Shown here one piece after another: positions 4,271-23,162 of a DNA stretch of 64,000 nucleotides. The position numbers were made by a program, and so were the translations under genes. Source of the DNA: an uncultured Solirubrobacterales bacterium (GTDB lineage: Bacteria; Actinomycetota; Thermoleophilia; Solirubrobacterales; 70-9). Under the pieces are notes generated by a model. The model ran no database searches and had not been told where the DNA came from. It saw only the letters and a list, made by a program, of their open reading frames with translations. Every line of letters starts with the position of its first letter. Within the stretch, counting starts at the first letter, position 1. The stretch spans positions 133,570 to 197,569 of the forward strand of contig CAWGQG010000002.1 of assembly GCA_963824785.1 (NCBI GenBank). The letters are read 5' to 3'.

Positions 4271-5536
4271 TCAGCCGCAGCCGCGGAAGCTGAGCTTCCG
4301 GGTGCCGACGAGCCCGGCCCGGTCCGTGGCCGTCAGCCTCAGCACGTGCGGGCCGGGCTTCGAGCCCAGCTTGAACTTCACCGCAGACTGGTTGAGCCGT
4401 CGCAGCACGCGCTTGCCGTCGAGCGTCGCGACGAGCGTCTGGGTCGGCGAGTCGTCCGTCACCGACAGCCGCAGTTTGAGCGATCCATCGGCGCAGCCTC
4501 CCGGCAGGCCCTTCACGCCCAGCTTCGGTTTCAGGAACGAGAAACGGGCGATCACGTCGCGAATCACGTCGTTGGTGCGGATCTGCGTCGGGTCGCTGAA
4601 CCAATCGTGGGCGCCGCCGGTGATCCGGTAGAGCCGGACAGTCGCGTACGAAGCGCAGCCGTCGTACCCGAGCTCGTCGACCTGGCTCACGACCGGGCGC
4701 ACCACGAGGGAGGGCGTGCACCCGTTCAAGCGCCCCCACGCCGCCAGGGCCTCCGGCACGCTGTACTGCCAATAGGCCGCGCCGCCCCCGTCGTAGGGGT
4801 TGGTGCCGTCCGCGGTTCCGTGGAGGGCGAAGATCGGCAGCGGGCGGGCGGGTGCGCAGGTCGAGGGATCGGGAGTGGCGCCGCCGGCCGCCGGGGCCCC
4901 GGCCCGCAGGCCGGCGTCCGCGACGATCGCGGTGATGCGATCCGCCGCATCACAGGCCAGCGCGGAGGTCATCCGGGCCCCGCCGGAGTACCCGGTCGAG
5001 AACACCTTGGCGCGATCCTGGCAGGCGATCGCCTGAATCTTGCTGACGACGGCGAGCAGATACTTCACGTCGTCAGGGAAGCCACCCGGCGGCTCGGTGC
5101 CGTTGGGGGGAACGCCGGGTACTACCCAGGCAAATCCGGCTCCGGCGATCGCGCCACCGCTCGGCGCGGCGACGAGGAACCCGCCCGCGTCCGCGGTCGC
5201 TCGGAGGCCTGAGACGTCCATCTGCCCCGGGCCAGTGCCGCCGCTGCCGTGGAGGTTGAGCAACACGGGGAGGCTCTTGCGGCCGTTGTATCCATTCGGG
5301 ACGTAGAGCACGAATGGCCGAGAGCGTCCGTCCACCGTCAGCTGCACGGTCTGGTCTCCGGCGGGAAGCGGCCGGTTGCAGCTCGAGCCCTTCTTCTTCT
5401 TTTTCTTGGGCTTCTTCTTTGCCGGCGCGGCATCCGGTGAGGAGGATGCGAGTGCGGGCAGGCAGCCGAGGAGAAGCGCCACGACGGCCACGAGCGAAGC
5501 GACCGCGACCTTTCGAGCCATCCCCTGATTCGTCAT
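4271..5536 (-). CDS. secreted lipoprotein esterase, PHB-depolymerase/LpqC family
   Basis: ATG at 5536 gives MTNQGMARKVAVASLVAVVALLLGC (lipobox LLGC). HGSGG and GYSGGARM serine-esterase motifs. Extra C-terminal beta-rich domain. The ORF-track start at 5743 overlaps the upstream gene. Confidence 0.75.
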   Translation of the reverse strand: MTNQGMARKVAVASLVAVVALLLGCLPALASSSPDAAPAKKKPKKKKKKGSSCNRPLPAGDQTVQLTVDGRSRPFVLYVPNGYNGRKSLPVLLNLHGSGGTGPGQMDVSGLRATADAGGFLVAAPSGGAIAGAGFAWVVPGVPPNGTEPPGGFPDDVKYLLAVVSKIQAIACQDRAKVFSTGYSGGARMTSALACDAADRITAIVADAGLRAGAPAAGGATPDPSTCAPARPLPIFALHGTADGTNPYDGGGAAYWQYSVPEALAAWGRLNGCTPSLVVRPVVSQVDELGYDGCASYATVRLYRITGGAHDWFSDPTQIRTNDVIRDVIARFSFLKPKLGVKGLPGGCADGSLKLRLSVTDDSPTQTLVATLDGKRVLRRLNQSAVKFKLGSKPGPHVLRLTATDRAGLVGTRKLSFRGCG

Positions 5537-6817: not shown

Positions 6818-9409
<2,592 letters not shown>

Positions 9410-9506: not shown

Positions 9507-11280
9507 ATGAACAAAATCAAGAACACCGCACTCGCTCTGCCCCTGGCCATCGCCCTCCTCGCCGCGCCCGCCGCGCTCGCCGCGCCGGCCGACGGCGACC
9601 TCGACAAGTTCTTCGACGGTGACGGGCGCCTGATCACCGATCTCGGCGGCAGCCACGGCAACTTCGGGCCCAAGGCCGTGACCGACTCAAGTGGCCGCCT
9701 GGTGCTCGCCGGCGTCTTCGGCGGCAACATGGGCGTCGGCCGGTTCAACCCCGACGGGTCCCGCGACACGACGTTCGCCGGCGACGGCAACGTGGAGATC
9801 GACTCCGGCGCCACCAGTCGGCGGGGAGCGGGCGCATCGGCCGTTGTCATCCAGGACGACGGCAAGATCCTGATCGTCGGCAACGCGTCCATCGCGGCGA
9901 GCGGCGACACCTCCGACCTCGTCCTCGCGCGGCTGAACGAGAACGGGACCCTCGACAACACCTTCGACGGGCCCAGCGGGAACGGCAATGGCCTCTTCCG
10001 TCTCGACGTGAACGAGGCCGGCGAGGAAGCGCGCGACGTGCTGATCAGCGGGACGAAGATCGTCATCGGCGGGCATGCCGGCTCACCCCTCGCTCCGTTC
10101 GTTACCCGGCTGGAGTCGAACGGCACGGTTGACTCCGACGAATTCGCGACCGGCAGCGACGGTGTCCTCACCTGGACCTTCCCGGGCGGGCCCGAGCTCG
10201 TTCCTCACCTCGCTGGCTCTGCAGGTCGACGGGAAGATCATCGCCGCGGGCTCGCCGAACAGCGGCAGCAACGGCGTAAACGTCGCTCGGATCACCACCA
10301 GCGGCGCGCTCGACACGGAGACCTTCGGAAGCCCCAACGGCTACGTCCAGCTGCCCGCTCCGTCGCCGTACTTCAACCGGGACGCCCTCGACGTGCTGGT
10401 TGACGGTGATCAGAAGATCGTGGTGGCCGGCAACGCCAGCGGTATCAACGGCCTCCAGGACCCGTTCCTGACGCGTCTCACCAACACCGGTGCGGCCGAC
10501 GGGACCTTCGACGGCGACGGCTTCGCCGTGCTGCCGCTCGGCAACGACGGCGACACCTCGTCCGCGAGCAGCATCGTCCGCCAGCCCGACGGCAAGCTGC
10601 TGATCGCCGGGACGGTCGGGCCCACCAGCCCGGAGTTCGCCCTCAGCCAGTTCGTGGCTCGATTCACGAGCAGCGGCGCCGTCGACAACACGTTCAGCGC
10701 GGATGCCCCCGCGGGGGCGAGCGTGATCACCAACCCCGGCATCTCGACCACCGGCAGCTCGCTGGCGCTCTCAACGGACGGCATCGCGTACGTGGCGGGC
10801 CTGACCCAGACCGGGGACCCGAACCGGGTGGGGCTCGCCGCCGTCTGCGCCACGGTCCCGCCCGCCTGCCCCGTACCCGAGACGCCGATCGACCTGGCCG
10901 TCGCCCCCGCGAGCGGCGCGAACGACAACAACCCGCGCGTGCAGGGCCTGGTCCCCGACGGCGAGGAGCCCACCGGTGTGACCATCTACACCGATTCCGC
11001 CTGCACCGGCCCGATCGCGGGAACCGGAACCCAGGCTACCTTCGAGACGGACGGGATCTCGGTCACGGTGCCCGACAACAGCACTACGACCTTCTACGCC
11101 AGGGCCAATGGCGCTCACGGGGACTCCGGGTGCTCCTCCACCGGCGTCGCCTACACCGAGGTGACCCCGCCTCCCGCCGCCGTTGCGCCCACCCCGCCCG
11201 CGGCAAAGAAGAAGTGCAAGAAGGCCAAGAAGAAAGCTGCGCCGGTCAAGAAGAAGAAGTGCAAGAAGAAGCGGACGTAG
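9507..11280 (+). pseudogene. secreted delta-60 repeat protein with Lys/Cys-rich C-terminal tail; apparent frameshift near 10185-10200
   Basis: ATG at 9507 gives the signal peptide MNKIKNTALALPLAIALLAAPAALA. Repeated ...FDGDG...DGKI.v.G units run in the frame of ORF 9444..10403, then continue in the frame of ORF 10075..11280. The junction lies in the run CCCGGGCGGGCCC. Confidence 0.7.
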
Positions 11281-11284
11281 CCGG

Positions 11285-12532
11285 CTAGACCGGCAGCTTC
11301 TTCGCCTTCTTCAGGCAGTTCGCCCGCGCCCGGCCCTTCTTCTTCTTGCATTTCTTGATGGCCGCCGCGCGCCTGCCGGTCGGGCCGGGCTTCGCGTTCC
11401 CGCCACCACCGCCCCCACCGCCGCCCGGCGGGGTGGTGGGAGGAGGGCCGCAGGGCGTGACCGCGTAGCAGGCGACGTAGGGCTCGCTCGGGGCCTTCGG
11501 ATAGTTCATCGTCGTCTGGTTCGCATAGGTCTGAGCGTTGCCGAAGTCGGTGGTTCCCGTCATCGTGTTCACGCCTGGCATGGGGTTGGTGCAGGCGGGG
11601 TCGGCGAAGCTCGGCCGGGTTGGGACCGCCGGCCCCGGGTTGTCGAGGGCGTCGATCGCCAGCAGGTAGGCGGCGTTGTTGACGGTGCCGATGTAGAGGT
11701 GATCCGTATACGGGGCGTTGGGGTTCGTGCAGACGTCTTGGACCGCGACGTTGGTGATCTCCCCCGCGATGTCGCCCGGCCGGAGCGAGGAGCTGCCGTT
11801 GTCATCCGCGTTCGGCTGGACGATGCTGTCGTTCTTCGTGTAAATCGCCGTGTAGTCGATTCCGGTGAAGGTCTCTTGATGCGAGTTGAGCGCCGCGATG
11901 AACGAGGCGCTGGCGAGCTGCTGCCAGATCGCGGGCGCGCAGCCCTGGAACGCGCACCCGTTGACGGCGATCGCGGCAGTCGTGCCGTGGTTGCTGGGAG
12001 CAAGCCCGACCAGGTCGTCAACCATCGCGCGGGTGTCGGGCCAGAACCGCAACGCCCAACGGGGCAGCATCCCGCCCTGGGAGAAGCCGAGCACGTCGAT
12101 CGGGTCGTCGTACTCCTCGGACATCGACCGAATCGCGTTGACGACGTACTCGCCGGCGATCTGGACGTCCGCCATCGCCGAGTCGGGAAGCGCGACCGTG
12201 CACCACTCCCAGTTCAGAACATCGTCGAAGGCCGGGATCCAGTTCCAGTCCCAGTTGTGCTCCGGCGTCAGCGACGTCCCGTGGACGAGCAGGACGGGCG
12301 GGCGGGTCGCGGTGGAGAGGTCCTCGACGCTGCAGTCGAGCGCCGCGTCGAGCGTGGCCTGCGGCACGGAGAGGGCGGGGCCGGGGGTGCTGACCGGCGT
12401 GTACGTCTGAGCCGAGGCGAGGCCGGAGGCGAACAGCAGAATGCTGCAGTTGCCGCAAGGGATGTGAGCGCCCGCTTCAAAGGTTTCGCCCCCCTGCCCT
12501 TCACAGTAGGCAGCCGCGAGGCGGCAACGCAA
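11285..12532 (-). CDS. secreted triacylglycerol lipase-like alpha/beta hydrolase (CalB/lipase class 2-like) with Lys/Cys-rich tail
   Basis: TTG start at 12532. Signal-like CSILLFASGLASA. VLLVHGT oxyanion region and GFSQGG nucleophile elbow. Poly-Gly/Pro linker, then the tail IKKCKKKKGRARANCLKKAKKLPV. Confidence 0.75.
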   Translation of the reverse strand: MRCRLAAAYCEGQGGETFEAGAHIPCGNCSILLFASGLASAQTYTPVSTPGPALSVPQATLDAALDCSVEDLSTATRPPVLLVHGTSLTPEHNWDWNWIPAFDDVLNWEWCTVALPDSAMADVQIAGEYVVNAIRSMSEEYDDPIDVLGFSQGGMLPRWALRFWPDTRAMVDDLVGLAPSNHGTTAAIAVNGCAFQGCAPAIWQQLASASFIAALNSHQETFTGIDYTAIYTKNDSIVQPNADDNGSSSLRPGDIAGEITNVAVQDVCTNPNAPYTDHLYIGTVNNAAYLLAIDALDNPGPAVPTRPSFADPACTNPMPGVNTMTGTTDFGNAQTYANQTTMNYPKAPSEPYVACYAVTPCGPPPTTPPGGGGGGGGGNAKPGPTGRRAAAIKKCKKKKGRARANCLKKAKKLPV

Positions 12533-12596
12533 CCTCAGTTCTGGGGGTTCAGCATCTGCGGTTGACCGTCGGCATGACCGGCGGTAGGCTCGCCCA

Positions 12597-14186
12597 ATGG
12601 GGAGAGGGACCAGAAGCGTGCGTCAGGCGGTGGTGCTCAGCGTCGCCGCTGTCCTCGCGACCCTCGTGGCGGTGACTCCCGCGCTCGCCGCCCAGGGCAA
12701 CTGGGACCGGGCGTGGGGGGAGGACGTCGACTCGGTCGCCGCCGGCGTCGGGTTCGAGGTGTGCACCATCGCGGCGAACTGCAAGACGGGCGTCAGTGCG
12801 GGGGCGGCCCTCGGTGGCGAGATCGATGGCACCTTCGGCGTTGCCACCGACGCGGCCGGGAACGTCTACGTGGCCGACACCAATAACAACCGGATCCAGA
12901 AGTTCAGCGCCGTCGGCGCCTTCGAGCGCGCCTGGGGCGAGGACGTGGTCAGCGCGGGGCCGGGCAACACCGGCGTCGGATTCGAGATCTGCGTGGCGGC
13001 GAACGGCGACGTCTGCAAGGTCGGCTCGGTCACGGGCCCGTCGCTCGGCGGCGAGCTCGCCGGGCCAATTGACGTCGCCACCGACGCGGCCGGGAATGTC
13101 TATACGACCGACAGTTTCCTGCGTGTGCAGAAGTACAGTTCCGCCGGGGCCTTCGAGCGCACCTGGGGCGGGAATGTGGTCAGCTCTGGCCCCGGCAACA
13201 CCGGGACGGGCTTCGAGATCTGCGTGGCGGCGGACGGCGACGTCTGTCAGACGGGCGGCGTGACCAGCGGGCTCGCCGGCGAGTTTGCCGCACCCGCCGG
13301 GATCGACGCCGACCCGGCCGGGAATGTCTACATCACGGACAACGCCTTCAACCGGGTCCAGAAGATGAGCGCCGCCGGCGTCTTCGAGCGCGCCTGGGGC
13401 GAGGACGTGGTCAGCTCCGGGCCGGGCAACACCGGCGTGGGAGCCGAGATCTGCGTGGCCGCGCGCGCCGACGTCTGCAAATTCGCAGCGCTGGCGGGCC
13501 CGGCGCTCGGGGGAGAGTTCAGTGTCGTAAGCGGGGTCACGGTGGATGCCGCCGGAAACGTGTACACCGGGGACCTCTCCAATCACCGGGTCCAGAAGTT
13601 CAGCGCCGCCGGCGTCTTCGAGCGGGCCTGGGGAGAGGACGTGGTCAACGGCGGCGGCACCGGTTTCGAGGTCTGCGTGGCGGCGAACGCCGACGTCTGC
13701 AAGATCGGCGTGGTCAGCGGCGCTGCGGTAGGCGGCGACTTCAACAATCCGCAGGGCATGGACACCGACGCGGCGGGCAACCTCTACGTCGCGGATACGT
13801 TCCACCGCCGGATTCAGAGATTCAGCCCTACCGGCGTCTTCGAGCGCACCTGGGGCGAGGACGTCGCCAGCGCGGGACCTGGCAACACCGGCGTCGGGTT
13901 CGAGATCTGCGTTGCGGCGAACGGCGACGTCTGCAAGACCGGGCAGGCCCCGGCGCCGGCGCTCGGCGGCGAGTTCGCCTCTCCGGCGGCCGTCGCCATC
14001 AACGCGGCAGGAGATCTCTACGTCGCGGACACAACGCACGACCGCGTCGAGAGGTTCGTGGACCCGCCGGCCGTGGTTCCCCCGCCAGGCACAACCCCGA
14101 CTCCTCCCTCTGCCAAGAAGAAGTGCAAGAAGGGTCAGAAGCTGAAGAAGAACAAGTGCGTCAAGAAGAAGCGGAAGAAGAAATGA
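12597..14186 (+). CDS. secreted six-bladed NHL-repeat protein with Lys/Cys-rich tail
   Basis: Signal peptide VVLSVAAVLATLVAVTPALAA. Six units ending in AAGNVYVAD..N.RIQKF. C-terminal tail AKKKCKKGQKLKKNKCVKKKRKKK. Confidence 0.8.
   Translation: MGRGTRSVRQAVVLSVAAVLATLVAVTPALAAQGNWDRAWGEDVDSVAAGVGFEVCTIAANCKTGVSAGAALGGEIDGTFGVATDAAGNVYVADTNNNRIQKFSAVGAFERAWGEDVVSAGPGNTGVGFEICVAANGDVCKVGSVTGPSLGGELAGPIDVATDAAGNVYTTDSFLRVQKYSSAGAFERTWGGNVVSSGPGNTGTGFEICVAADGDVCQTGGVTSGLAGEFAAPAGIDADPAGNVYITDNAFNRVQKMSAAGVFERAWGEDVVSSGPGNTGVGAEICVAARADVCKFAALAGPALGGEFSVVSGVTVDAAGNVYTGDLSNHRVQKFSAAGVFERAWGEDVVNGGGTGFEVCVAANADVCKIGVVSGAAVGGDFNNPQGMDTDAAGNLYVADTFHRRIQRFSPTGVFERTWGEDVASAGPGNTGVGFEICVAANGDVCKTGQAPAPALGGEFASPAAVAINAAGDLYVADTTHDRVERFVDPPAVVPPPGTTPTPPSAKKKCKKGQKLKKNKCVKKKRKKK
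12693..14069 (+). repeat. six tandem intragenic repeats of about 78 aa (NHL blades)
   Basis: RAWGEDVVS.GPGNTGVGFEICVAANGDVCK...AAGNVY..D....R.QKFS..G.FE recurs six times in the translated ORF. Confidence 0.8.
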
Positions 14187-17631: not shown

Positions 17632-19185
17632 GTGAAGAAGCTCAGTATCGCCGCGGGCCTGGCGGCTCTTGCGATAGCCGCGCCCTTGAGCATCGGCTCA
17701 TCGCATCGCGAGGCCCCACTCACATCGATAGATCCCACGGGGGATGACACCGACCTCTACGCCTTCACGGCCGAGGACGCCCCCGACGCGTTGACGATCG
17801 CCTCCAACTGGATCCCGTTCGAGGATCCGGCCGGCGGTCCGAACTTCTACAAGTTCGACGACAACGCGCACTATTACCTGAACATCGACAACACGGGCGA
17901 CGGACGCCCCGACGTCCGCTACCTGTTCGACTTCGAGACCGAGAATCGCAACCCGAAGTCATTCCTGTACGCGAACGGGATGCCCGTCGAGACGGTTGAC
18001 GGAGAGGCCCTGAACATCGTTCAGACCTACTCGATCACCCGTGAGGAGCCCGGTGGCGGCTCCGAGGTCATCGCCGAGGACCTCCCGGTCGCCCCCAGCA
18101 ACGTCGGCCCGAAGACGGTTCCCGACTACGAGGCAGTCGCGGCCGGTGCCGTCAAGGACCTGCCGGGTGGCGGCAAGGTGTTCGCGGGCCAGCGCGAGGA
18201 TCCGTTCTTCGCGAGTCTGGGCCGCATCTTCGACACCGTCAACCTCGAGGGTGCCGGGCTCGGCAACGAGGGCGGCGGAGTCGACGACCTGGCCGGCTAC
18301 GCGGTCCATTCGATCGTGTTGCAGGTCCCAGAGGCTGACGTGACCGTCGACGCCAAGCCCGTCGCGGATGAGAAGGCCTCCAACGCCGTCGTCGGAGTCT
18401 GGACCTCCACGGAGCGCCAGACGATCAGCCCCGACGGCAGCGCGAGCGGGGACTACCAGCAGATCTCCCGTCTGGGGAACCCGCTGGTCAACGAGGTGAT
18501 CATCCCCGTGGGCGACAAGGACCGGTTCAACCGGACCACCCCCGACCAGGACGCGGCCAACTACGGCCAGTACGTGACCGAGCCGGAGCTCGCGAAGGTG
18601 CTCAACGTCCTGTACCCGGACGTGGCAGCGCCCGAGAAGAACCGCACGGACATCGTCCAGGCGGTCCTGCAGGGCGTGCCGGACCTGAACGCGTTCCCCG
18701 GCAAGGCCGGGATGAACGCGACGGACACGCTCAAGCTCAACCTGGGCGTGGCGCCGGCCGCCGAGCCGGACCGGCTGGGAGTGATCGCCGGTGACACCTC
18801 CGGTTACCCCAATGGCCGCCGCCTGATCGACGACGTGGTCGACATCGACCTCCAGGTCGTGGCCGGCGCGTTGAAGGGGAATGAGGTCCCATTGGGTGAC
18901 GGGGTCAACCAGAACGACGTCGAGTTCCTGACGTCCTTCCCGTACCTCGCCGCCCCCAAGCCGGGGGCCAACCCCGACGCGGGATATGGCTCGCAGCTGA
19001 AGGCGCTCGCGGGCGCTGACGGCAGCGGGACCCTCCCGTCCTTCTCGGCCGGTGACGGCGGGGGAGATGAGGACGACGACGACGGCATGGGTGCCCTCGT
19101 CTGGATCCTGGTGGCGGCCGGAGCCCTGGCTCTGGCCGGGATCGCCTACCGGGCCGGTCGCGGCTCGGGAGGCTCAGCCGCCTAG
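17632..19185 (+). CDS. DUF4331 domain protein, secreted with C-terminal TM anchor
   Basis: Signal peptide followed by the family-typical SSHREAP motif, then DLYAF, NFYKFDD and YLNIDN. C-terminal acidic stretch, then helix ALVWILVAAGALALAGIAY. Confidence 0.85.
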   Translation: MKKLSIAAGLAALAIAAPLSIGSSHREAPLTSIDPTGDDTDLYAFTAEDAPDALTIASNWIPFEDPAGGPNFYKFDDNAHYYLNIDNTGDGRPDVRYLFDFETENRNPKSFLYANGMPVETVDGEALNIVQTYSITREEPGGGSEVIAEDLPVAPSNVGPKTVPDYEAVAAGAVKDLPGGGKVFAGQREDPFFASLGRIFDTVNLEGAGLGNEGGGVDDLAGYAVHSIVLQVPEADVTVDAKPVADEKASNAVVGVWTSTERQTISPDGSASGDYQQISRLGNPLVNEVIIPVGDKDRFNRTTPDQDAANYGQYVTEPELAKVLNVLYPDVAAPEKNRTDIVQAVLQGVPDLNAFPGKAGMNATDTLKLNLGVAPAAEPDRLGVIAGDTSGYPNGRRLIDDVVDIDLQVVAGALKGNEVPLGDGVNQNDVEFLTSFPYLAAPKPGANPDAGYGSQLKALAGADGSGTLPSFSAGDGGGDEDDDDGMGALVWILVAAGALALAGIAYRAGRGSGGSAA

Positions 19186-21039: not shown

Positions 21040-21480
21040 GTGATGACCGAGGTGGTACAGGCAATCCGCAGGGCCCTGCTCGGCACGGGCTCGGCCGCGT
21101 TCACGCTGATCGGATCCATCGTGATCGGCTTCGGCGTTCCCCTGTTCTGGGTCTTCCTGGCCTCGAAGCTCTACGGCAAGCCGGGCGCGGTCAACGGATC
21201 CGTGGCGATCTTCATCTTCACCGGCATCCTGGTCAGCTACTGGGGCCTGCTGCTACTCGCCTCCTGGATCCGCGGCCGGCTGATGGGGCTCGGCGCGGAG
21301 CCGGGCCCGAGGCGCCAGTCGTGGAACCGCAGCATGCGCGACGCCCGCTACAAGCCCGGCGAGCACCAAAGCGACCCGGTCGAGCGGCTGTTCGTGACCA
21401 CGGCGATCATCTCGATGATCGGGTTCCTGATCTGGTTCGCGTTCTTCGCGGGCGCGCCGTTCCCGACGAGCCCGGCCTAG
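21040..21480 (+). CDS. hypothetical membrane protein (four predicted TM segments)
   Basis: 146-aa ORF with clearly hydrophobic segments. No family recognised. Confidence 0.5.
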   Translation: MMTEVVQAIRRALLGTGSAAFTLIGSIVIGFGVPLFWVFLASKLYGKPGAVNGSVAIFIFTGILVSYWGLLLLASWIRGRLMGLGAEPGPRRQSWNRSMRDARYKPGEHQSDPVERLFVTTAIISMIGFLIWFAFFAGAPFPTSPA

Positions 21481-23162
21481 CAGCCGCGCTTGCGCAGCTT
21501 GCTGCGCAGCTTCCGCTTCGCCTTCTTCTTCTTCGCCTTCTTCAGCTTCTTGCGCAGCTTTGCGCAGGCCGGATCGGCGCCTCTCTCGGCGCCCTTCTGA
21601 GCCGGACACCCCTGCAGGCTCTGGGGACCGTCGACCGACGGGCAGGAGTCGCCGGCGTCGGGAGTCCCGTCGCCGTCGCTGTCAGGTCCGCCGCCCCCGG
21701 TGCCGGAATCGGGCGTGTTGGCGAAGGCGACGAAGTCGAAGGCCGGATCGGCCGGCGTGGCCGGGCAGCCGGCCCTCATGTCGTTCGAGGTCGCGGGTGC
21801 GCCGCCTGACAACGTGAAGTCGTAACGCGAGCGGAAGTAGAACGAGAACATGTTGCCGTCGCCGTTCTGATCGACATCCTTGGTCAGCGCGTCGTCGCAC
21901 CAGCGGTCGGTCAGCAGCCTGGCGTCCGCCGTCGCGTCGCCCTTCACGTACTTGTCGAACCAGGCGAGCGTGTACCAGGCGACGAGGTCCTGTCCCCGCC
22001 GGGTGCCGGTGCCGAGGACCGGGATCGTGTTGCCCGGGATCAGGGATGACTCGTAGTGGGTGCCGCCGCGGATGTTCACCTGCATCGAGTCCACGCCGGC
22101 GGTCTGGTAGTCGCTGAACCCGGCGTTCTTCCCCTCGGGATTGGGATCGCTCGTGAAGGGCGTCGGCGTCAGGCCGTAGTCGTTCGAGATTCCCATGGCG
22201 GGCTTGGTGAGCGCCGGGCCCTCGCGGGAGTCGGGGTTCGACGGGCATTCGTGGTTGCCGAAGACGCCTTCCTCGGGCGCTGACAGGTTGTCCCAGGCGA
22301 CCAGCGTGTCGACCCGCGGGTCGCGCTGCCCGATGAACGAGACGGCGCTGGCGCCGAGCGAATGGCCGGCGATGCCGATTCGGCTCGAATCCACCAGCGA
22401 GTGCATGGGATTGAACGCGGCGGCCAGGCCCTCGCCGACTCGCCGATCGTGCTTCGGCGAGTGATCGGTGCCGACGTCCTCGTTGGCGTTGCCACAGCTG
22501 GGCCGGGGGTCAAAGGGCTGCGCCGGGGTGGAGAGCAGGAAGTCGAGCGCGTCCTCGGTGCCGTCGAAGAACGGCTGGCCCTGCTGGGAGGGGACGCCCT
22601 CCTGCTCGTCGGGCGCCTCCCCGAAGGTGTCGGAGCGGCCCTGGCCCTGGACGTCGTAGGTGAGGACGATGTAGCCGGCCTTGGCGAAGGTCGCGGCGAG
22701 GCCCCAATAGAGCGTCTCCGGAGCCTGCACCGACCCGGTGGTGATGACGATCGCGGGCCGCTGGACGGGTCCGCCCGCCGTTCCCCACACCGCGCCGGAG
22801 ATGACCGATCCGTTGCGCGCGGTGAAGAGCACCGGGGTCATCACGCCGTAGCCGCTCTCCTCCCAGTCATAGAAGCGGACGTCGCCAGCGCACTCGTTCT
22901 TGCGGTTGGAGCAGACGTTGGTGGGGTTGCGCTCGGGATCCTCGAGCAGGAGCTGCTCGAGGACGCCGACGTCCTCGATGTTCTGCTGCTGCAGTCGGGT
23001 CTGGAACTCGGGCGTCCCCGTGACGTAGACGTTGCGTTCGCTGACCTTGGCGAAGTTCTTGGCCTCGAGCGCGGGGTCGAAGGCGCCGGCCGCCGCGGGC
23101 AGGCCGAGGACCGCAACAAGCGCGGTCCCCGCAAGGACGAGTGTCAGTTTCGCTCTCCGCAT
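21477..23162 (-). CDS. secreted alpha/beta hydrolase with Asp-rich Ca-binding-like motif and Lys/Cys-rich tail
   Basis: ATG at 23162 gives signal peptide MRRAKLTLVLAGTALVAVLGLPAAAGA. GIAGHSLGAS nucleophile elbow. GPDSDGDGTPDAGDSCP motif. Tail CAKLRKKLKKAKKKKAKRKLRSKLRKRGC. The upstream part of ORF 21477..24698 is antisense to radA. Confidence 0.7.
   Translation of the reverse strand: MRRAKLTLVLAGTALVAVLGLPAAAGAFDPALEAKNFAKVSERNVYVTGTPEFQTRLQQQNIEDVGVLEQLLLEDPERNPTNVCSNRKNECAGDVRFYDWEESGYGVMTPVLFTARNGSVISGAVWGTAGGPVQRPAIVITTGSVQAPETLYWGLAATFAKAGYIVLTYDVQGQGRSDTFGEAPDEQEGVPSQQGQPFFDGTEDALDFLLSTPAQPFDPRPSCGNANEDVGTDHSPKHDRRVGEGLAAAFNPMHSLVDSSRIGIAGHSLGASAVSFIGQRDPRVDTLVAWDNLSAPEEGVFGNHECPSNPDSREGPALTKPAMGISNDYGLTPTPFTSDPNPEGKNAGFSDYQTAGVDSMQVNIRGGTHYESSLIPGNTIPVLGTGTRRGQDLVAWYTLAWFDKYVKGDATADARLLTDRWCDDALTKDVDQNGDGNMFSFYFRSRYDFTLSGGAPATSNDMRAGCPATPADPAFDFVAFANTPDSGTGGGGPDSDGDGTPDAGDSCPSVDGPQSLQGCPAQKGAERGADPACAKLRKKLKKAKKKKAKRKLRSKLRKRGC

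Follow-up and report, generated by a model that had tools for sequence, protein, structure and literature searches.

Why do neighbouring genes for otherwise unrelated secreted proteins of an uncultured Solirubrobacterales bacterium end in the same kind of basic, cysteine-bracketed tail, and what might such a tail do? The window analyzed here is a stretch of 64,000 nucleotides. The original prediction, made from its sequence, described Lys-rich tails bracketed by two cysteine residues on three adjacent genes, with a fourth copy ending a hydrolase gene (21477-21569). All four tails were located in the ORF translations of the window where they had been placed and as they had been quoted, the fourth as a module at 21480-21566 on the minus strand. 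The genes and their parts are as follows.

9507..11280, plus strand: delta-60-repeat (DUF5122) secreted protein, with signal peptide MNKIKNTALALPLAIALLAAPAALA from 9507
11164..11205, plus strand: Pro/Ala/Thr-rich linker TPPPAAVAPTPPAA of the delta-60 protein, preceding its module
11206..11277, plus strand: type B module KKKCKKAKKKAAPVKKKKCKKKRT of the delta-60 protein, C-x14-C with an Ala-rich centre, stop codon at 11278-11280
11285..12504, minus strand: CalB-like secreted lipase, likely start GTG at 12504 (VKGRGAKPLKRALTSLAATAA...)
11375..11449, minus strand: Gly/Pro-rich linker GPPPTTPPGGGGGGGGGNAKPGPTG of the lipase, predicted to be disordered (pLDDT <50, residues 327-341 of the mature numbering)
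11288..11374, minus strand: type C module RRAAAIKKCKKKKGRARANCLKKAKKLPV of the lipase, C-x10-C, predicted by AlphaFold2 as helix, turn, helix (pLDDT ~92)
12597..14186, plus strand: six-repeat NHL beta-propeller secreted protein, with signal peptide MGRGTRSVRQAVVLSVAAVLATLVAVTPALAA
14061..14114, plus strand: Pro/Thr-rich linker DPPAVVPPPGTTPTPPSA of the NHL protein
14115..14183, plus strand: type A module KKKCKKGQKLKKNKCVKKKRKKK of the NHL protein, C-x10-C, subtype consensus KCKKGxKLKKGKCVKKKRKK, predicted by AlphaFold2 as a beta-hairpin (pLDDT ~91)
21477..23162, minus strand: secreted alpha/beta hydrolase (dienelactone-hydrolase-like), with signal peptide MRRAKLTLVLAGTALVAVLGLPAAAGA
21480..21566, minus strand: type E module CAKLRKKLKKAKKKKAKRKLRSKLRKRGC of the hydrolase, C-x27-C, amphipathic and Leu-containing, with a cysteine residue at both ends

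The assignments of the three adjacent bodies held up. The delta-60 protein matches TIGR02608 and DUF5122, the lipase superimposes on CALB with a Foldseek TM score of 0.84, and the propeller has five stretches that match Pfam NHL and, by eye, six repeats. In the hydrolase, a TSP3-like Asp-rich motif precedes the tail. A Sec signal peptide is present in all four carriers, as had been claimed for the three adjacent genes, with the qualification that two of the genes contain an apparent 1-nt frameshift. That in the delta-60 gene (near 10183-10197) puts the signal peptide at 9507 out of the frame of the tail, the C-terminal part of the protein being in the frame of 10075..11280. That in the lipase gene lies inside the signal peptide (near 12440), and the mature protein starts around QTYTP at 12409. 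Neither frameshift reaches a tail.

Each of the four tails contains exactly two cysteine residues. The predicted spacing of 10-14 residues between them fits the delta-60 (14), lipase (10) and NHL (10) proteins but not the hydrolase (27), whose tail is a distinct Leu-containing amphipathic subtype. Ranked by Lys content of the last 40 residues, the four tail ORFs are the top of the window (15, 15, 14 and 11 Lys, with 8 in the next ORF). Since Lys makes up only 2.6% of the coding-like ORFs in the window, the probability of at least 11 Lys in 40 residues is ~4e-9. At the DNA level, a pattern for the tail grammar matched the window twice, and 100 shuffles gave no match. In the protein at 39472-39876, elsewhere in the window, one half is basic and Cys-bracketed and the other is acidic.

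Beyond the window, the same DNA pattern was found at 113 loci among 185,579 species genomes. 103 of these lie in Solirubrobacterales or Thermoleophilia MAGs, and the remaining 10 do not fit the grammar. An exhaustive search with a type A profile returned 672 clusters at 50% identity. It superseded a word-index profile search whose yield was limited to 23 short gene fragments, the candidate selection having been overwhelmed by Pro-rich and poly-Lys words. The module is restricted to one lineage (Solirubrobacterales/Thermoleophilia), and within Solirubrobacterales it occurs on secreted proteins that number in the hundreds and are unrelated to one another. The tail is kept in lipase and hydrolase orthologues from independent assemblies, short-read and long-read alike. 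For the hydrolase, the closest orthologues (P0145-P0157) retain the module, and a further sequence (P0144) is identical to the window protein.

Synonymous codon variation at the conserved Gly, Leu and Val residues indicates that selection acts on the protein. For the same reason, we rejected the A-rich tract as a DNA or RNA element. Within each subtype, specific residues are conserved (G, L, G and V in type A; RAAAL...KLPV-stop in type C). In a genome of 70% GC, the modules prefer Lys over Arg by 2- to 6-fold, whereas the bodies of their carriers have K:R ratios of 0.3-0.5. Among 120 lipase homologues, the basic tail contains two cysteine residues in 91 and none in 11, and the few odd counts are artefacts of the counting-window setting. 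This distribution fits an intramolecular disulfide, which we consider probable from the sequences and the models. Judged from these counts, the paired cysteines are under selection. A basic tail retained in the cytoplasm to stall translocation was rejected, since the cysteines are paired and N-terminal copies follow the signal peptide and precede a body that is exported.

At least four module subtypes, differing in predicted fold, could be distinguished. The modules are ~23-30 residues in size with a median net charge of +16; the bodies have a median charge of -13, and 82% of them are net negative. The original picture of one C-terminal tail thus survives as a portable module, but not as a single sequence type or a single position. 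The module is C-terminal in 64 of the 79 characterized module-bearing ORFs, and type A sits at the very C-terminus in 131 of 140 listed representatives. ~13 of 92 modules (about 14%) directly follow the signal peptide and are succeeded by a Pro-rich linker and the body. There are thus two mirror-image orders, body-linker-module at the C-terminus and signal peptide-module-linker-body at the N-terminus. Tandem modules and module-only secreted proteins (P0140, P0265) also occur. AlphaFold2, read out as confidence and secondary structure, predicted a beta-hairpin for type A and a helix-turn-helix for type C, both with pLDDT >90 beside a disordered linker. That different predicted folds have only charge and one Cys pair in common points to a physicochemical role, rather than to a single recognition motif.

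The carriers are otherwise unrelated proteins united by secretion, as had been proposed. The signal-peptide score was positive for 41 of 49 carriers versus 228 of 601 control ORFs (p=4e-10), an enrichment in line with the original prediction, and most of the carriers missed by the scoring show a visible signal peptide on inspection. The outcomes named beforehand as refuting the original prediction (no enrichment among signal-peptide proteins, absence from orthologues, an origin in assembly errors) did not occur. They belong to at least 49 Pfam families, all extracytoplasmic, including trypsin, PhoD, purple acid phosphatases, penicillin amidase, FG-GAP, cadherin-like, Ig-like, NHL and DUF5122. 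An NCBIfam scan placed choice-of-anchor Q in 17 and choice-of-anchor D in 5 of 79 carriers; in other lineages, the choice-of-anchor families take assorted anchoring signals (LPXTG, PEP-CTERM). Even within a single lipase family, members end in a type A, B or C tail, in a Cys-free poly-Lys/His tail, in a TM+RRRR end or without a tail. Solute-binding proteins, wall-synthesis enzymes and other proteins obliged to remain on the producing cell are missing from the commonest carrier families.

We compared the module with known sorting signals and binding domains. As originally noted, the tail has no hydrophobic helix, and this extends from the four window tails to ~90 module-bearing ORFs, none of which shows an LPXTG-type motif with such a helix (pentapeptide, hydrophobic helix of ~15-20 residues and short basic tail at the extreme C-terminus). 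A combined regex and hydropathy scan of ~1,300 ORFs turned up no true LPXTG end where only ~two were expected, so it is uninformative on sortases in the order. No NCBIfam sorting domain (PEP-CTERM, GlyGly-CTERM, MYXO-CTERM, PGF-CTERM and related, for which we required a curated HMM match with motif, TM helix and Arg-rich end) matched whole carriers at E<=0.1 or tails alone at E<=10. The claim that the tail is unlike curated sorting signals is therefore sustained, as no Pfam or NCBIfam model covers it. No Pfam family over the module was common to the 79 and the 127 carriers scanned, and a tail-only scan at E<=10 returned noise only. LysM, SLH, SH3/GW, CWB2, ChW and choline-binding domains were absent from the 25 most frequent of the 49 and of the 34 Pfam families hit in the two carrier scans. 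An EGF-like domain has six cysteines in three disulfides; the module has two cysteines and no EGF Pfam match. A full-text literature search, whose limited coverage leaves novelty unproven, returned no description of the module, nor do the consulted parts of Haft's 2023 sorting-signal preprint and of surface-display papers contain one.

The explanation that we favor, at little better than even confidence, is that the modules are disulfide-stapled polycationic knobs on Pro-rich tethers, which bind an anionic envelope polymer non-covalently. The carriers would be exported by Sec and their signal peptides removed, after which the two conserved cysteines would form an intramolecular disulfide. So stapled, type A would fold compactly as a beta-hairpin and types C and E as a helical hairpin, and the Lys-rich stretch would be shielded from proteases as well. 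The cationic knob would then attach, reversibly and multivalently, to something anionic in the envelope of the producer itself; a wall polymer of teichoic or teichuronic type, an acidic polysaccharide and the head groups of acidic lipids are candidates. In this way the cell would retain its enzymes and adhesin-like repeat proteins and display them at the tips of the tethers, the role that LPXTG, PEP-CTERM or lipid anchors play in other lineages. We infer a polyanion-binding anchor from charge, tether architecture, signal peptides and carrier families; binding itself, the ligand, the localization and the assignment of the surface to the producer are all parts of this reading. Three observations count against it. 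The conservation within subtypes and the C-terminal bias of type A would be given equally by a recognized signal, pure electrostatics does not predict the preference for Lys over Arg, and the commonest carrier families lack proteins that are bound to remain on the producer.

Three other explanations were weighed. It is scarcely credible that the tails are artefacts, produced by frames or stops called wrongly in an assembly prone to indels, or that they are neutral low-complexity extensions without function. The two apparent single-base frameshifts in the window genes, and related long-read MAGs in which some tails are frameshifted and read EEEE or RRRR, speak for it. Against it stand the conservation of orthologue tails across many independent assemblies, short-read included, the 672 clusters of type A, the retention of the Cys pair and of Gly, Leu and Val under synonymous codon change, the very low probability of Lys-rich frames in 70% GC DNA, and the confident AlphaFold2 structures of two subtypes. 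Alternatively, the modules might direct exoenzymes and adhesins, once released, to anionic targets beyond the producer instead of to its own wall. Such targets could be particles of clay or humic matter, the eDNA or acidic polysaccharide in the matrix of a biofilm, or other microbes' surfaces. We regard this reading as unlikely, if by no means negligible. The lineage is found in soil, the carriers are mostly scavenging hydrolases (lipase, proteases, phosphatases, phytase-like proteins, acylases) and adhesin-like repeat proteins, and the module-only peptides and the protein at 39472-39876 resemble free cationic peptides. Moreover, since proteins that must stay on the cell are missing from the most frequent carrier families, external anionic material is equally compatible with the data. 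However, the modules are joined to their bodies by a Pro-rich spacer, in either orientation, just as the anchors of wall-spanning surface proteins and lipoproteins are, the carrier families overlap those that are cell-anchored in other lineages, and lytic or toxin domains are not prominent among the carriers.

It seems improbable to us that the module is a genuine sorting or attachment signal, recognized by machinery of its own once Sec has exported the protein. In one version, an L,D-transpeptidase or transglutaminase-like enzyme would couple a Lys epsilon-amine to peptidoglycan; in another, a candidate enzyme would process the module or couple it through cysteine. Braun's lipoprotein is attached covalently to peptidoglycan through its C-terminal Lys. 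By this analogy, we arrive at a specific and quite improbable proposal, a new helix-free signal in which Lys-rich stapled knobs are substrates for covalent, sortase-independent wall coupling, which could run from the Lys epsilon-amine to the peptidoglycan stem peptide or through a Cys-mediated linkage. Covalent coupling would explain the preference for Lys over Arg at 70% GC and the sequence-specific conservation of each subtype. More generally, the motifs conserved within each subtype, the strongly C-terminal position of type A, the invariant Cys pair, the carrier families that bear sortase- or exosortase-type signals in other lineages, and a Lys preference that runs against GC mutational pressure and suggests Lys-specific chemistry all argue for a recognized signal. 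Against one, no hydrophobic helix would hold the module at a membrane enzyme, each of at least four subtypes of differing predicted fold would need recognition, modules also occur N-terminally, in tandem and alone, orthologues include Cys-free and Arg/His-rich variants, and no candidate enzyme came to light in the present analysis.

The Solirubrobacterales, for the most part uncultured, rank with the most abundant Actinomycetota of soil. Each genome encodes at least tens of secreted proteins with this portable module of ~25 residues, and hundreds of protein clusters carry it, which makes it a cheap sequence marker for the surface and secreted proteome of the order. Annotation pipelines need a model for it, as such C-termini are now unannotated and frameshifted copies are mis-called. 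Read as a stapled polycationic anchor, the module leads to a testable hypothesis, namely that the lineage has an anionic envelope polymer. It would also be a minimal natural display or immobilization tag, provided that it binds the wall or a polyanion. Its several predicted folds, with only charge and one Cys pair in common, make it an instructive case of selection on a physicochemical grammar and not on homology.

Among known systems, the LPXTG/sortase, PEP-CTERM, GlyGly-CTERM, MYXO-CTERM and PGF-CTERM signals share with the module the form of a short terminal add-on behind a low-complexity linker, on many unrelated signal-peptide proteins of one lineage. They also share its carrier families (choice-of-anchor Q and D, delta-60, NHL/ScyF-like and rhombotarget-like proteins). 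The module differs in lacking a signature motif with hydrophobic helix and any NCBIfam match, in occurring also N-terminally, in tandem or alone, and in comprising several unrelated sequence and fold subtypes. The mycobacterial proteins HBHA and Hlp/MDP1 have surface-exposed, Lys/Ala/Pro-rich C-terminal domains that bind polyanions (heparan sulfate, DNA). They too are actinobacterial proteins with polycationic Lys-rich ends, and type B likewise has an Ala-rich centre. However, their repeats are longer and contain no Cys pair, they comprise only two protein families and are not portable, and no sequence relationship to the module was detected. The host-defence peptides lactoferricin, bactenecin, thanatin and the 'Rana box' are single-disulfide cationic loops that bind anionic bacterial envelope polymers. 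They resemble the module as short, strongly basic segments with one Cys pair, the spacings C-x10-C and C-x14-17-C being in the same size range. Those peptides are free, amphipathic and membrane-active, whereas the module is tethered to large enzymes or adhesins and is much poorer in hydrophobic residues.

The hairpin of the EGF-like C-terminal sub-domain has the pattern C-x2-G-[FYW]-x-G-x2-C. Type A (C-K-K-G-[QFYW..]-x4-G-K-C-V), with its confidently predicted two-stranded hairpin, mimics only this C5-C6 hairpin; it has one Cys pair against six cysteines, and the resemblance is one of local pattern and shape only. The K-Ras4B hypervariable region and the MARCKS effector domain are likewise Lys-run electrostatic anchors, for acidic lipids. 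In K-Ras4B, a cysteine adjoins the Lys run, and its prenylation at a CaaX box is required (PMC6888304 for K-Ras). Both are cytoplasmic and eukaryotic, whereas the module is extracytoplasmic and has no CaaX box. The LysM, SLH, GW/SH3, CWB2 and choline-binding repeats of Gram-positive bacteria differ from the module in being folded, in their length of 40-80 residues per domain or repeat, and in having specific glycans as ligands. They resemble it in their modular placement at either end of a protein and in the reversible retention on wall polymers that we propose.

The ORF listing and a six-frame scan bore out the original prediction that four ORFs in the window end in Lys-rich, Cys-bracketed tails.

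Tail-bearing (carrier) proteins of the window
Tail ending at 11280, + strand: delta-60/DUF5122 protein
Tail ending at 11285, - strand: lipase
Tail ending at 14186, + strand: NHL propeller
Tail ending at 21477, - strand: alpha/beta hydrolase

Each tail contains exactly two Cys residues. Ranked by Lys in the last 40 residues, the carriers are the top four ORFs of the window (15, 15, 14 and 11 Lys), and the fifth has 8. Coding-like ORFs in the window (GC ~70%) contain 2.6% Lys and 9.6% Arg; at this Lys content, at least 11 Lys in 40 residues has P ~4e-9. A DNA pattern written for the tail grammar has two matches in the window, and 100 shuffles gave none. The bodies are those originally named: TIGR02608 and DUF5122 matches mark the delta-60 repeat protein and NHL repeats the propeller, while the AlphaFold2 model of the CalB-like lipase (mean pLDDT 90.7) gives a TM of 0.84 to Candida antarctica lipase B. 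All four carriers have ordinary Sec signal peptides, once two frameshifts are allowed for. Around the carriers lie core housekeeping genes (ClpC, PepF, aldo-keto reductase, DUF4331, TPR protein, Fur and RadA), and thus the carriers are not on an obvious island.

The delta-60 gene contains an apparent single-base frameshift (10183-10197), probably a homopolymer indel introduced in assembly: its signal peptide and initial repeats share the frame of 9507, and everything downstream of the shift, tail included, follows that of 10075. On the - strand, the lipase signal peptide contains an apparent single-base deletion near 12440 (12430-12504), with VKGRGAKPLKRALTSLAATAA (GTG at 12504) and ILLFASGLASAQTYTP read in different frames; comparison with the lipase homologue P0007 revealed the intact form. 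Both frame changes look like single-base assembly indels, and neither affects the tails. Elsewhere, frameshifted tails in some assemblies read EEEE or RRRR (loci L048 and L089, homologues P0015 and P0060), the expected product of indel errors in AAG runs. Retention in orthologues had been named as a test of the prediction, and orthologues do keep the tails. The 120 best lipase homologues all come from metagenomes or MAGs, and 111 of them end in a basic tail; 91 of these tails have two Cys and 11 have none, the few odd counts being due to the placement of the counting window. The closest hydrolase orthologues retain the unusual Leu-containing tail C-AxLRKxLKR...KLRxKLRKxGC-stop, and in more distant ones the tail is of another type, is replaced by RTX repeats or is missing. 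In addition, the conserved Gly, Leu and Val residues are encoded by several synonymous codons among 34 distinct type-A coding sequences, so it is the peptide and not the DNA that is under selection. An artefactual origin of the tails is effectively excluded. Many hydrolase homologues (P0151-P0263) carry RTX calcium-binding repeats in place of the poly-Lys tail, and these RTX-type ends contain another Cys-bracketed motif, C-G-P-G-R-D-R-V-x-A-D-x-x-D-x-L-G-x-G-C.

The shared tail had been described as a single type. The charge and the Cys pair are indeed shared, but at least four subtypes with different predicted folds recur across unrelated proteins.

Module subtypes
Type A: KCKKG-x-KLKKGKCVKKKRKK-stop, C-x10-C (window NHL tail)
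Type B: KCKKKKHR-(S)AAAA-KKKKCKKKKRR-stop, C-x12-21-C (window delta-60 tail)
Type C: PTGQRAAALKKCKKK...KKCKKKAxKLPV-stop (window lipase tail)
Type E: Leu-containing amphipathic, C-x27-C (window hydrolase tail)
Further tandem form: KAAIIKCKKIK...KCIKKARKRYR

In the pattern-derived set, KCKK and CxKK were dictated by the search pattern itself; no such constraint applies to the Gly/Leu/Val positions, to the spacing, or to the lipase and profile sets, which were found independently. AlphaFold2 predicted the lipase, from an 81-sequence alignment, to have a disordered linker (pLDDT <50) followed by a type-C module (pLDDT ~92) of helix 346-354, a KKKKG turn and helix 360-369. The type-A tail was predicted as a beta-hairpin (strands 27-30 and 33-36, pLDDT ~91).

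To survey the distribution, the DNA pattern AAGTGCAAGAAG-N15-45-TGCNNSAAGAAG was scanned in one genome per species across 185,579 species, giving at least 113 matching loci. Of the 113 listed, 103 are titled Solirubrobacterales, Solirubrobacteraceae, Thermoleophilaceae, Thermoleophilia or unclassified MAGs named Actinomycet-, and none belongs to a cultured genus. The other 10 come from Verrucomicrobiota, Planctomycetota, Myxococcota, Pseudomonadota and Enterococcus, and the terminal module grammar was not seen in these listed non-Thermoleophilia loci. L002 and L082 (Verrucomicrobiota), L098 (Phycisphaeraceae) and L014 (Phycisphaerae) encode different Cys/Lys-rich low-complexity proteins, with repeats in such matches including KCKKCDKDKDED units and KPCGKKPCGKK. 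One 2.0-Mb contig holds 10 pattern loci with at least 15 modules, implying at least tens of modules per genome. An exhaustive hmmsearch of 1.84 billion cluster representatives with a type-A profile returned 672 matches at E<=1e-3 and 64 at E<=1e-10. Carrier genes often stand two to four in a row (L026, L027, L035, L046, L050, L056, L068, L071, L089, L099, L112), like three of those in the window; some neighbours are paralogues and others unrelated.

The predicted enrichment of signal peptides among carriers was evident at the fetched loci: a crude heuristic called a signal peptide in 41 of 49 complete carriers and in 228 of 601 control ORFs (Fisher p=4e-10), and for most of the eight carriers missed, a signal peptide is visible or the frame is disturbed upstream. 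Matches to 49 Pfam families on 79 carriers are all of extracytoplasmic types, among them trypsin, P-domain, NHL, FG-GAP, laminin-G, purple acid phosphatase, PhoD phosphatase, penicillin amidase, cadherin-like, Ig-like, beta-helix and phytase-like; 127 additional type-A carriers add InlB B-repeat, TSP3, PMP and SdrD-B. NCBIfam choice-of-anchor Q was found on 17 of the 79 and choice-of-anchor D on 5, with further matches to ScyF (PEP-CTERM NHL), rhombotarget A and myxosortase-dependent peptidase. These NCBIfam families occur with assorted anchoring signals in other lineages.

The module had been described as a C-terminal tail. This holds overwhelmingly for type A (131 of 140), but in 13 of 92 module ORFs the module is N-terminal (such as L001, L013, L035, L066, L086 and L111), in the order signal peptide, module, Pro-rich linker, body. 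There are also tandem modules (L036, L061, L096, L100, P0265), a protein with one internal and one C-terminal copy (L059) and module-only secreted peptides (P0140). Median net charge is +16 for the module and -13 for the body, and the median number of Pro in the 30 residues adjoining the module is 6. Lys outnumbers Arg in modules (K:R 2-6), and the bodies to which they are joined have a K:R of 0.3-0.5. In this comparison (sets A1 and A6, lipase and hydrolase homologues), Arg is favoured 2- to 3-fold in bodies.

Four other proteins of the window were also noted. A small secreted protein (39472-39876, +), matching no Pfam model, has a Cys-bracketed basic stretch, YCKAQKKKLGKKAFSKRYGKSKPMKSCIKKQRK, after its signal peptide. 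Its C-terminal half is strongly acidic, contains two further Cys and ends DEEEEF; the protein resembles a module that may be neutralised by its own acidic partner. An esterase-like protein (4271-5476, -; no Pfam match at E<=1e-3) has a lipobox-like LLLGC and the run AKKKPKKKKKKGSSC directly after the signal sequence, which would place poly-Lys at the mature N-terminus. At the C-terminus of the DUF4331 protein (17632-19185, +), an acidic/Gly-rich stretch is followed by a hydrophobic helix and RAGRG (GDEDDDDGMGALVWILVAAGALALAGIAYRAGRG); L085 ends similarly, and this would be a C-terminal membrane-anchor pattern of another kind within the lineage. ClpC has an unusual C-terminal extension (9230-9409, +), Lys-rich for 18 residues and then acidic for 20.

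The signal peptides, the choice-of-anchor extracytoplasmic families, a flexible-tether architecture found in both orientations, the paired Cys and predicted folds that share only charge point to an autonomous polycationic unit, held by one putative disulfide, rather than a sortase-type signal. Such a module would retain its secreted carrier reversibly and electrostatically on an anionic envelope component. We consider this most economical reading somewhat probable. Alternatives remain because of the subtype-specific sequence conservation, the type-A C-terminal bias and the Lys preference. The preference for Lys over Arg in a genome of 70% GC, together with the His-rich variants (KHKKHKK) common in lipase tails, is unexplained by a charge-only model. 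That a dedicated system recognises the module, or attaches it covalently through Lys, seems to us quite improbable. That the module targets external anionic material (matrix, eDNA, minerals or other cells) finds its main support in the predominance of scavenging hydrolases among carriers, and we regard it as unlikely, if less so than dedicated attachment.

As for reversible envelope retention, the proposed role would make this a terminal surface-retention module, and its breadth across an abundant, poorly known soil order gives it fairly high interest. It had not been recognised as a described module, and we found no description in Pfam 2025, NCBIfam June 2026 or a full-text literature search; no Pfam or NCBIfam model covered the tails in whole-protein scans or, at E<=10, in tails alone. 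It is proposed to act as an anchor, as LPXTG-type and related sorting domains do, yet falls outside every tested membership criterion for these, for known wall-binding modules and for EGF. By analogy of function it comes closest to the Lys-rich termini of HBHA and Hlp and to the cationic loops, closed by a single disulfide, of host-defence peptides.
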